Shown here: piece after piece, positions 59,501 to 62,500 of the stretch
Layout: each line of letters begins with the position of its first letter
Position numbering within the stretch: the stretch's first letter is position 1
Assembly (NCBI GenBank): GCA_963709345.1
Contig: CAVPVX010000001.1
Span: 390,418-454,417, forward strand
Source of the DNA: an uncultured Actinomycetes bacterium
GTDB lineage: Bacteria; Actinomycetota; Thermoleophilia; UBA2241
Direction: 5' to 3'
DNA: 64,000 nt
Made by a program: the position numbers

Positions 59501-62500
59501 TGCTGGACGAGCAGTGGAGCGCGGAGGCGGCTTTGACGGCGATCCTCGGCAAGCTCAGCCGCGGGACGCTGTTGCACGACGTCGGTTACCTCGAGTGCGG
59601 GTTGCAGAGCAGCGACGAGTCGATCGTCTTCGGTGACCACCTGCTCGGCTGGGCGAAGGCGTTCATGGCGCCGCTACCTGTGGACGACGAGGCGCTGGCG
59701 CTGGACGAGATCGAGGCGGTAGGGCCGGGCGGCAACCACCTGGCCCGGCCCTACACGCGCAAGCACTTCCGCAAGATCTGGCAGAGCGACTTCCTGGACA
59801 CGACGCGGCACGACGCCTGGGAGGCGGACGGGTCAAAGACGCTGCTCGACCGCCTGCGGGCGCGAGTCGCGGAGCTGCGCTCCGAGCCGCGTGCCTTCGA
59901 GTTGCCGGATGACGTCACGGCGGGCCTCGACCGGATCCTTGCGGACGTCGAGGCCCGGCGGCCGGGGGGCTGACCGGCCAAGTCGGCCCCCCGCGAGGGC
60001 GTTCGCGAGGGGCCGCGCCGTGACGGCTCAGCTGCCTCCGGCTCTCCCGCGACCGAAGCGGCCCCGCTCCAGGACCATGTCGATGTAGTCGTCGCAGAGC
60101 GCGAGCGCATCGTCGACACTGAAGTCCGTCGCCGCCATCAGCAATTCGATCCAGGCTCCGTCCGCGAGGGCCACGAGCCCGATCCCGGCCTTGCGGGGAT
60201 CGATGTCCAGGCCGAACTCTGCTGCGCCGCCTCGCGGAAGAGCTCGCTGTACCGCTCGCGCTCGTCGGCGTACACACGCTCGTTGATCTCCTTGAGGTCC
60301 GGGTCGCCGAGGGCTGCCTGCCAGAACCCGAACCAGGCGTGAGCCCGTTCAGGCGCCGCCAGCTCCTCACGGAAGTCCGTGGCGACGATCGCGCGTAGCG
60401 TCGCCACCGGATCGTCGTCCTCCGCCGGGCCGGCTGTGAACGCCGCCCGCTGCCCGTCCGCGAGGCGCTGGAACGCCTCGAGGAGGAGCCGACGCTTGCT
60501 GCCGAAGTGGTGCCGCACCAGGCCGCGGGACACCCCGGCGGCGTCGGTGATCCTCTCGATGGAACGCTGGCTGTAGTTGGCCATGCACAGGATCGTCGCC
60601 TCGATGAGCCTGTCTTTTGACGCGGCCGCGCTGAGCTGACGCCTGTTCTGTTGCGGCTGCAGGCTCCTCGTGGGCTGCTCTGTGGAGTGCGCTCGGTCCA
60701 TCGCGTCGCAGCGTACCATGGAGCTCTTGACGCAGACCAGACTGGCTTGCTATATGTAGAGACAGCCGAAACCATCCGGGGGAGGTGGGTCCATTGAAAC
60801 GACGTGCCCACGTGGGACTGTACGCGCCAGCGGAGGCTTCAGCTCGATGCCTTCACCGACGACGAGTTCAGGGACCTCCACGTCGCGACTCTGGAGGTCC
60901 TCGAGCAGACTGGCGTCTTCACCATCTACGACCCCGAGGCGCTGGACATCTTCGAGTCCGGCGGCGCGATCGTCGATCGTGCGACCGGGGTCGTGAGGAT
61001 TCCGCCGCGGCTCGTCGAGGCGGCGCTCGACTCGTCGCCGGAGCGCATCCTGGCCGCCGGTCGCAGCCCCAAGGACGACATCATGCTCGATGCCGGGCGC
61101 GTCGGCTTCACGACGTTCGGCGAGGGCATCAGCATCGTCGACCTCGAGACCGGCGAGATGCGTGAGCCGACCAAGCAGGACGTCGCCGACACCGCGCGAG
61201 TCGCCGACTACCTGGACGAACTGGACACGTACGAGATCGCCGTCGGAGCTCACGACATGCCGACCGCGACGGCGACCATCCACAGCTACGAGGCGGCGCT
61301 GCTCAGCACGCAGTAAGCACATCTGCGCCGGCCCGCTCTCCCGCTGGGAGGCCGAGACGATACTCGACATCGCCGCCGCCGTCGTGGGTGACCGGGAGGC
61401 TCTGCGGCGGCGTCCGATGGTGATGATCGGAGTATGTCCGGTGAGTCCGCTGAAGCTCCCCAAGGAGTGCTCGGAGGCGATCGTCTCGGCCGCGCGCGCC
61501 GGCGTCCCCTGTCTGGTGCTCTCGATGGCGATGGCCGGTGGCTCGGCCCCCGTCAATCTCGCCGGTACACTCGTCGTCCACAACGCTGAGGTGCTCGCCG
61601 GAATCACGCTGGCGCAGCTCACGAGCCCAGGCACGCCGATGCTCTACGGCAGCTCGACGACGGCCATGGACCTGCGCCTCGCGGCGGCCTCCGTCGGCTC
61701 GCCGGAGTGTGGCGTCATCAGCGCCGCCGCAGCCGCCATCGCGCGACGGTATCGCCTGCCCAGCTACGTGGCCGGGTTGTAGGGCGACTCCAAGCTCTTC
61801 GACGCTCAGACCGGTCACGAGAAGACGCTGACCGCGCTGCTGCCGGCGTTGGCAGGTGCCAACCTGATCTACGGCGCGGGGATGATCGAGTCGGGTGTCG
61901 CGTTCGATTTCGGCCAGCTCGTCATGGACAACGAGTTCGCCCGGATGATCAAGCACGCGGTCATGGGTGTCCCGGTGGACGACGAGCGGCTCGGCGTGGA
62001 CGACATCGCGCAGGTGGGCCCCTTCGGGGACTTCCTCAGCCTGGACTCCACACTCAAGTTCATGCGCAGCCAGTCCCAGCCGAAGCTGATCGACCGCAGG
62101 GTGCGGGAGGACTGGGCCGCCGCCGGCGGCAAGGACTTGCATCAGCGCGCGCTGGAGGAGGCGCGCCGCATCCTCGCGACGCACGTGCCGGAGCCGCTGC
62201 CCGACGACGTCGTGCGCAAGATCCGCGAGATCGTGGACGCGGCCGACGCCGCTGCGGCAGTAAGAAGTCCACAATGCACCTGAAGTTCGGGTGCCTTTCG
62301 GCCGCCGAGAAGGACGCGCTGCACCAGCGCGTCCTGTACGTGCTCGAGCACGTGGGCATCGGCGTGGAGTCCACCGTCGCCCTGGACCTCCTCGCCGACG
62401 CGGGCGCCCACGTCGACAGGGTAGCGCCGCACCGCGACCCTGCCCCCAGAGCTGGTCGAGAGCTGTCTGGAGAAGGCTCCCGGGAGCGTGCGGCTCGCGG

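Follow-up and report, generated by a model that had tools for sequence, protein, structure and literature searches.

A second mttB gene at a contig end

We analysed a 64,000-nucleotide stretch of DNA (hereafter the window) from a Thermoleophilia metagenome-assembled genome (MAG) that comprises 3.11 Mb in 11 contigs, has 69% G+C and is 98% complete. The window corresponds to positions 390418-454417 of contig C1, and its end is the end of that contig. The gene under study, hereafter the target, is the second copy of mttB, the gene for the pyrrolysine (Pyl)-type trimethylamine:corrinoid methyltransferase; it carries an in-frame TAG and is broken by shifts of reading frame in the window. An original prediction, made from the DNA of the window, had described a second mttB copy with an in-frame TAG at 61780-61782 on the strand opposite to the first copy, and the reading frames and the alignment confirm this description. 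The features of the locus are listed in Table 1.

Table 1. Features of the target locus and positions of the Pyl-type mttB genes of the genome (window coordinates unless a contig is named)
Feature	Position	Strand	Remarks
Stretch of C1 assembled again as contig C8, in reverse orientation	51486-64000		Differences dense in 56000-61000
Corrinoid (B12-binding) protein gene, directly behind the first mttB copy	51550-52176	-	Pfam B12-binding, B12-binding_2
First mttB copy	52173-53642	-	489 codons, intact in window; TAG 52659-52661; TIGR02369 666.3 bits
Non-Pyl MttB-superfamily paralogue, upstream	58576-59973	+	Frame-broken in window; 470 residues, intact on C8
BetI-type TetR regulator, divergent from target	60138-60719	-	TetR_N, TetR_C_6; C8 version 231 residues
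Target mttB (second copy)	60794-62283	+	Frame-broken in window; PF06253/TIGR02369
Three single-base indels	60819-60846	+	Extra T 60819, extra C 60827, missing A after 60846; net +1 frame change near start
Three extra bases, in frame	60925-60927	+	TIYD in window, TDD on C8
Extra G	61310	+	Second frame change; window frame then closes at TAA 61314-61316
In-frame TAG of target	61780-61782	+	Codon 328 of intact gene; read as pyrrolysine
Non-Pyl MttB-superfamily paralogue, start overlapping target stop	62275-63700	+	Frame-broken in window; 475 residues, intact on C8; TIGR02369 298.7 bits, below cut-off
Pyl-type mtbB, 5' end, cut by contig end	63718-64000	+	Complete on C8 with one TAG (L036:87-1475, reverse strand); PF09505 553 bits
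TAG-bearing mttB locus	C6:35712
TAG-bearing mttB locus	C7:749431
TAG-bearing mttB locus	C7:341800
TAG-bearing mttB locus	C11:180069
TAG-bearing mttB locus	C10:88461
TAG-bearing mttB locus	C1:442620	-	First mttB copy
TAG-bearing mttB locus	C8:2956 and C1:451729	- (C8)	Target, assembled twice

In the window, the target appears as two matches to PF06253 (Pfam MTTB) in different frames: one at 60813-61310 (profile positions 21-183; 65.2 bits) and one at 61312-62238 (profile positions 184-493, with one TAG; 226.4 bits). The start is a TTG at 60794 behind GGGGGAGGTGGG, and the TAG is in frame with the stretch that runs from about 61312 to the TGA stop at 62281-62283. An intact form of the same gene is present on contig C8 (L036:2911-4395, reverse strand), where it is open over 494 codons with a single TAG at codon 328 and scores 698.9 bits on the NCBIfam equivalog TIGR02369, above its cut-off of 525. 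The N-terminus encoded on C8, MKRRAHAGRTRSGGFSLNAFTDDEF (first codon TTG), matches the N-termini of the other six paralogues. Taking the evidence below as a whole, we consider it very probable that 60794-62283 is a functional mttB gene whose UAG is decoded as pyrrolysine, and that the breaks in its frame are consensus errors.

The TAG and the pyrrolysine position of MttB

Read through the TAG, the 3' two-thirds of the target match MttB of Methanosarcina barkeri (7xcm, E = 4.4e-92; 7xcl, E = 2.7e-91; chain residues 193-491). In this alignment the TAG, read as K, falls on residue 334, which is X in 7xcl and K in 7xcm. We take residue 334 to be the Pyl position of the M. barkeri enzyme, with which the X of the deposited 7xcl sequence agrees. 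The glycine betaine enzymes 2qne and 9yce match the same part of the target far more weakly (197 bits). The 22 codons directly after the TAG are among the best conserved of the family, and they match the M. barkeri enzyme.

Pyrrolysine machinery and use of UAG

The genome contains a complete bacterial-type pyl set. One tRNA-Pyl (anticodon CTA) was identified by ARAGORN at C11:14991-15063, directly behind pylD, and pylB (426.7 bits), pylC (279.7 bits) and pylD (213.2 bits) lie directly upstream of it. Next along the contig are pylSn (C11:16192-16452; 122.5 bits), which is followed by a corrinoid protein gene, and pylSc (C11:18405-19130, reverse strand; 318 bits). The pyl genes and tRNA-Pyl are thus clustered within 11.6-19.1 kb of C11, and all of these matches exceed their curated cut-offs. 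In some Pyl-using bacteria, pyl expression is induced by methylamines.

With this set, the UAG at codon 328 of the target would be decoded as Pyl by the genome's own tRNA-Pyl(CUA), which would be charged by the split PylSn/PylSc synthetase, the amino acid itself being made by PylBCD. By homology with the M. barkeri enzyme, the product would use trimethylamine as methyl donor and a corrinoid protein as acceptor, and its active-site Pyl may bind and activate the methylamine as proposed here by analogy with that enzyme.

Among 2157 rough open reading frames (ORFs), 1626 end in TGA, 449 (about 21%) in TAG and 82 in TAA; these counts come from a crude ORF caller that applies thresholds to G+C at third and second codon positions (GC3/GC2) and covered 75% of the genome, and they include the N-terminal parts of Pyl genes as TAG-terminated. 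Release factor 1 (RF1, encoded by prfA) is present, with a score above its cut-off (483 bits). UAG has therefore not ceased to be a terminator and RF1 has not been lost, the two marks of a genome-wide reassignment of UAG to Pyl; an archaeal code in which all TAG codons mean Pyl is known from a citation in PMC13695967. Because TAG ends about a fifth of the rough ORFs and RF1 is present, UAG is ambiguous in this organism, as in other Pyl-using bacteria, of which a proportion of about 21% UAG stops is typical (PMC9723677).

No signal that would set apart the two uses of UAG emerged from the features we looked at. TAG terminators in the crude ORF set are not followed by an excess of back-up stops, the median distance to the next in-frame stop being 53 codons after TAG and 51 after TGA. 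Folding of 78 and 121 nt downstream of the TAG in the target and the first copy gave nothing notable that would resemble a pyrrolysine insertion sequence (PYLIS) (z = -1.74, +1.02, +0.79 and +0.48), this being a comparison by folding only.

The genome also contains selenocysteine (Sec) machinery, namely a tRNA-SeC at C1:120215-120312 and selB (317.9 bits) and selA (525.8 bits) at C1:135447-138853, and so seems able to encode the 22nd amino acid as well as the 21st. Sec was considered as a residue of MttB homologues, as four PF06253 matches contain an internal TGA. Each of these TGAs precedes the real start, within residues 12-90 of a frame that had been extended too far, and the candidates were rejected.

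Paralogues of the target in the genome

The target and the first copy share 58% protein identity, and in both of them the TAG stands 22 codons ahead of the motif LAGAN. These observations uphold the original prediction, which had described two diverged paralogues with this spacing and with a stop in the identical alignment column. The last point holds well beyond the two copies. A scan of the genome with PF06253 gave 64 matches; after extension of the frames, the TAG-bearing mttB loci have one internal TAG each, 161 or 166 codons ahead of the stop. These represent seven distinct loci (Table 1), in which the TAG occupies a single alignment column, and about 25 other full-length members of the family in the genome have sense codons in that column.

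The dimethylamine methyltransferase family (mtbB, PF09505) is represented by ten full-length matches with one TAG each and by one further, fragmented match. Two MtmB-like (PF05369) matches, at C7:776285-777439 and C2:391900-393261, have no internal stop and are possibly non-Pyl relatives of monomethylamine methyltransferase.

Relatives and selection before and after the TAG

A scan of species-representative genomes, carried out with six search patterns none of which covers the TAG region, yielded 80 relative loci. Six of these are orthologues 92-95% identical to the target and five are 80-85% identical, mostly labelled Thermoleophilia; the more distant relatives belong to Actinomycetota and to Desulfobacterales, including the Olavius Delta 1 symbiont. 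In all 80, the codon aligned with codon 328 is TAG, and the match runs across it in a single frame.

We calculated dN/dS (omega) by NG86 for the parts of the gene before and after the TAG, a check that had been set for the original prediction. Between the C8 copy and the 11 orthologues, omega lies at 0.12-0.25 upstream of the TAG and at 0.13-0.28 downstream. Similar ranges result when the intact 3' part from the window itself is compared with the same orthologues (0.09-0.25 for 61312-61779 and 0.15-0.29 for 61783-62280). Of the 21 pairs that the seven paralogues form, 20 have a lower omega in the part after the TAG than in the part ahead of it; absolute values were taken from the orthologues, as dS is near saturation between these 69%-GC genes (omega 0.28-0.69) and only the before/after comparison can be used. 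Overall, constraint continues downstream of the TAG, and these sequence comparisons indicate no relaxation of selection there.

In an unrooted FastTree tree of 87 proteins, the target falls in a clade of 12 sequences and the first copy in a clade of five, both with support of 100, and each clade contains orthologues from other Thermoleophilia MAGs. As the two copies lie in separate clades with orthologues of their own, their duplication is, on the evidence of this tree, old, and the TAG would have been kept independently in each line. The target would accordingly be one of seven old, separately conserved Pyl-mttB paralogues.

Five of the genome's own paralogues, including the target and the first copy, are in the half of the tree dominated by Actinomycetota. 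The paralogues C10:88461-89900 and C11:180069-181502 are found on the side dominated by Desulfobacteria, a placement that may reflect transfer between phyla. A 3.7-kb contig labelled Deltaproteobacteria (L044) carries an orthologue that shares 85% identity with the target and has another in-frame TAG at about codon 36 of the frame as read; this contig groups with Actinomycetota sequences in the tree, and its bin label may be wrong.

Frame breaks and the doubly assembled contig end

Contig C8 (13,767 bases) aligns to 51486-64000 of the window with 97.7% identity over 12,620 columns, with 137 mismatches and 134 gap openings (150 gap positions), and extends 1,192 bases past the end of C1. Genes in 56000-61000 and in 62400-63700 of the window are frame-broken in C1 and intact in C8, while the first mttB copy is intact in C1 and broken in C8. 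Within the target, the two assemblies differ by about a dozen substitutions and by five indel events that amount to two net frame changes. The original prediction had supposed two indels in the 5' half of the gene, possibly consensus errors. Its view of their nature is supported, as there are two net frame changes close to the places it gave, the gene is intact on C8 and public contigs agree; the number of indel events had to be raised from two to five.

The public data are Logan contigs from four runs, each of a different study, compared at a likeness of at least 90%; they represent related populations and not demonstrably the source sample, and the best-matching run contained 31% of the words sampled. 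The G at 61310 is omitted by contigs in all four runs, as are the three extra bases (placed at 60924 or 60925), and the C at 60827 is omitted in all three runs that cover this position. Public contigs that cover 60819-60846 omit 60827 together with either 60819 or 60817, and add one base at 60842-60848. At the listed substitutions (60813, 61026, 61163, 61306 and 62137), public contigs have the C8 state. The six orthologues at 92-95% identity match the target in a single frame. The reading frame of the target is thus broken in the window, intact on C8 and in the orthologues, and free of the indels in the public contigs.

The genes rpoB and rpoC each form one open frame in this assembly, so frame breaks are not general in it. 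They are concentrated in the multi-copy MttB/MtbB families and at the unresolved overlap between C1 and C8. At least a dozen further MttB or MtbB genes are each spread over two to four pieces in different frames (for example C2:330290-333210, C10:13844-15245 and C11:176097-177473).

Because the ratio of indels to substitutions is about one, unlike natural divergence, and because the C8 copy is intact and public contigs omit the extra bases, the frame breaks of the target in the window are in all likelihood consensus errors.

Alternative explanations

Two other accounts of the TAG were considered. If it were a true stop, the gene would yield only an N-terminal fragment of the protein, whether or not an ORF for the C-terminal part existed beside it, and Pyl would not be inserted; the frequent use of TAG as a terminator in this genome, the presence of RF1 and the unremarkable RNA structure downstream all fit such an account. 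It is very improbable, however, in view of the complete pyl set with its tRNA-Pyl, the purifying selection past the TAG and the retention of TAG, and not of a sense codon or another stop, in every one of the 80 relatives. Moreover, the next possible start, a TTG at 61849, lies beyond the 22 well-conserved codons that follow the TAG. The TAG might also have replaced a sense codon through an error of sequencing or assembly, as the contig end around it is error-prone, but C1 and C8 do not differ anywhere in 61500-62000, which contains the TAG. We checked the state of the codon contig by contig in two public contigs (X3 record 28 and X1 record 5) and found it unchanged in both: one, over 61671-61794, shows zero differences from the window, and another, over 61643-62059, shows four, none at the TAG. 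With the same codon also present in all TAG-mttB paralogues and relatives, an error at this position is scarcely conceivable. Because the TAG aligns with residue 334, the genome has the full pyl set with tRNA-Pyl, the intact gene scores well above the TIGR02369 cut-off and constraint continues downstream, the sequence evidence supports the TAG as a Pyl codon and not an error or a random nonsense mutation, which is the interpretation that the original prediction had favoured.

The frame breaks could have a biological origin if C1 and C8 represented two co-existing strains or two true copies, with the C1 form a real pseudogene decayed by frameshifts. In favour of this, the two contigs differ by 137 substitutions as well as by indels, the first mttB copy is broken on C8 but intact on C1, and other MttB/MtbB matches in the assembly are also split. 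On the other hand, the 150 gap positions stand to the 137 mismatches at about 1:1, far from what natural divergence produces, and the differences are packed into 56000-61000, with none in 61500-62000. At every listed difference between C1 and C8 within the target, the public contigs show the C8 state. In addition, C8 ends in a repeat of about 620 bases (about 99% identity) and C1 ends inside C8, which is the signature of an unresolved overlap; the repeat probably caused the assembly to break. A real pseudogene is therefore unlikely, and we favour a functional gene with consensus errors.

Several points nevertheless weigh against our interpretation of the target as a functional Pyl-mttB and call for caution. 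The public sequences that side with C8 at the frame breaks are all contigs, the best run containing only 31% of the words sampled, and since many other MttB/MtbB matches of the assembly are split too, some real decay of an expanded family is possible. UAG is ambiguous in this organism, and the search for a recoding signal gave none. In seven of the 11 comparisons with orthologues, the part after the TAG has a somewhat higher omega than the part before, although never above 0.28. No corrinoid protein gene adjoins the target within the window or on C8, whereas such genes are present behind the first mttB copy and in the pyl cluster. Finally, both Pyl insertion and the activity of the enzyme are predictions from sequence.

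Gene neighbourhood

The target probably heads a small operon, in the order mttB, non-Pyl MttB homologue, Pyl-type mtbB, facing the gene for the BetI-type TetR regulator; a MerR-GAF regulator is also found upstream. On TIGR02369, the non-Pyl neighbours of the target score 298.7 and 291.3 bits. Further upstream, at 43421-50167 of the window, two non-Pyl MttB homologues flank an ATP-binding cassette (ABC) transporter (SBP_bac_3, permease and ATPase), an arrangement suggestive of a unit for the uptake and demethylation of a quaternary amine.

The corrinoid protein gene behind the first mttB copy (208 residues, GC3 0.99) is repeated in the genome. About 620 bases over this gene recur at about 99% identity at C7:343293-343918, C11:177547-178168 and C10:87661-88282, so that the repeat occupies four loci, each beside mttB or mtbB. 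As the repeats are about 99% identical and the neighbouring mttB genes only 52-66% identical, gene conversion or recent spread of the corrinoid gene is suggested.

Distribution in the class and implications

PylSc was found above the cut-off in 37 of 201 sampled genomes of the class, the source genome included. Leaving the source genome aside, it is present in 32 of the 35 sampled genomes of the same family (17 of 20 in the same genus); elsewhere in the class, it is present in five of 35 genomes of one other family and in none from ten other sampled families. As judged from these matches, PylS is a trait of the source organism's family.

Pyl-mttB in Actinobacteriota is already in print: expression of Pyl-encoding mttB and mtbB has been described for some MAGs of Actinobacteriota from Stordalen Mire, the genes being classed there by truncation at the amber codon (PMC10805028). 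The Pyl trait is mostly discussed for methanogens, Firmicutes and Desulfobacterota (PMC9723677). In a search of the literature on pyrrolysine in Thermoleophilia or Actinobacteriota and on mttB in Thermoleophilia, which did not cover supplements, no paper turned up in which Thermoleophilia are called Pyl decoders or their pyl machinery is described.

The data tilt, by a modest degree, towards a broader proposition: that this is a Thermoleophilia family with conserved Pyl decoding and with a complement of Pyl genes among the largest in bacteria (about eleven mtbB, and seven mttB that are old paralogues, each with orthologues of its own), which also has Sec machinery, retains RF1 and still uses UAG as a stop in about one fifth of its genes. 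If this is true, actinobacteria of soils and sediments would be a major and barely described reservoir of code expansion and of anaerobic methylamine turnover, and the long-kept mttB paralogues may differ in substrate or regulation and not be redundant.

The target itself adds a well-supported actinobacterial case with full pyl machinery, in which a known mechanism is found in a less familiar lineage. Standard gene callers split such a gene at the TAG and at the false frameshifts, and would report it as a pseudogene or in three or four pieces; with the correct reading, the target suggests that this Thermoleophilia genome could demethylate trimethylamine and dimethylamine, which bears on the competitors of methylotrophic methanogens for methylamines in soils and sediments. 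The redundant, error-rich contig end affects every gene call in 56000-64000 of the window.

Comparison with known systems

The non-Pyl MttB superfamily, which includes the glycine betaine methyltransferase MtgB (2qne, 9yce), is the same superfamily as that of the target, and its members are kin of the neighbours at 62275-63700 and 58576-59973. They differ from the target in having a sense codon at the Pyl column and in scoring below the TIGR02369 cut-off.

M. barkeri MttB (7xcl, 7xcm and 7xcn) belongs to the same fold family as the target (PF06253), the TAG falling on its Pyl position. That enzyme comes from a methanogen, whereas the host of the target is a bacterium, a high-GC actinobacterium in which the synthetase is split into PylSn and PylSc, unlike in the M. 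barkeri system. In a non-methanogen, the methyl acceptor is presumably tetrahydrofolate and not coenzyme M.

Three relatives of the target (L080, L084 and L093) come from MAGs whose names are in the Stordalen Mire style ('bog_752', 'palsa_645'). Another comparable system is that of the Desulfobacterales and the Olavius 'Delta 1' symbiont, for which a large pyrroproteome has been described (PMC1976440). There, Pyl-mttB has TAG in the same column and is 56-61% identical to the target, and the genome of 'Delta 1' likewise combines many paralogues of Pyl genes with Sec machinery (PMC1976440), although these bacteria belong to a different phylum from that of the target's host.

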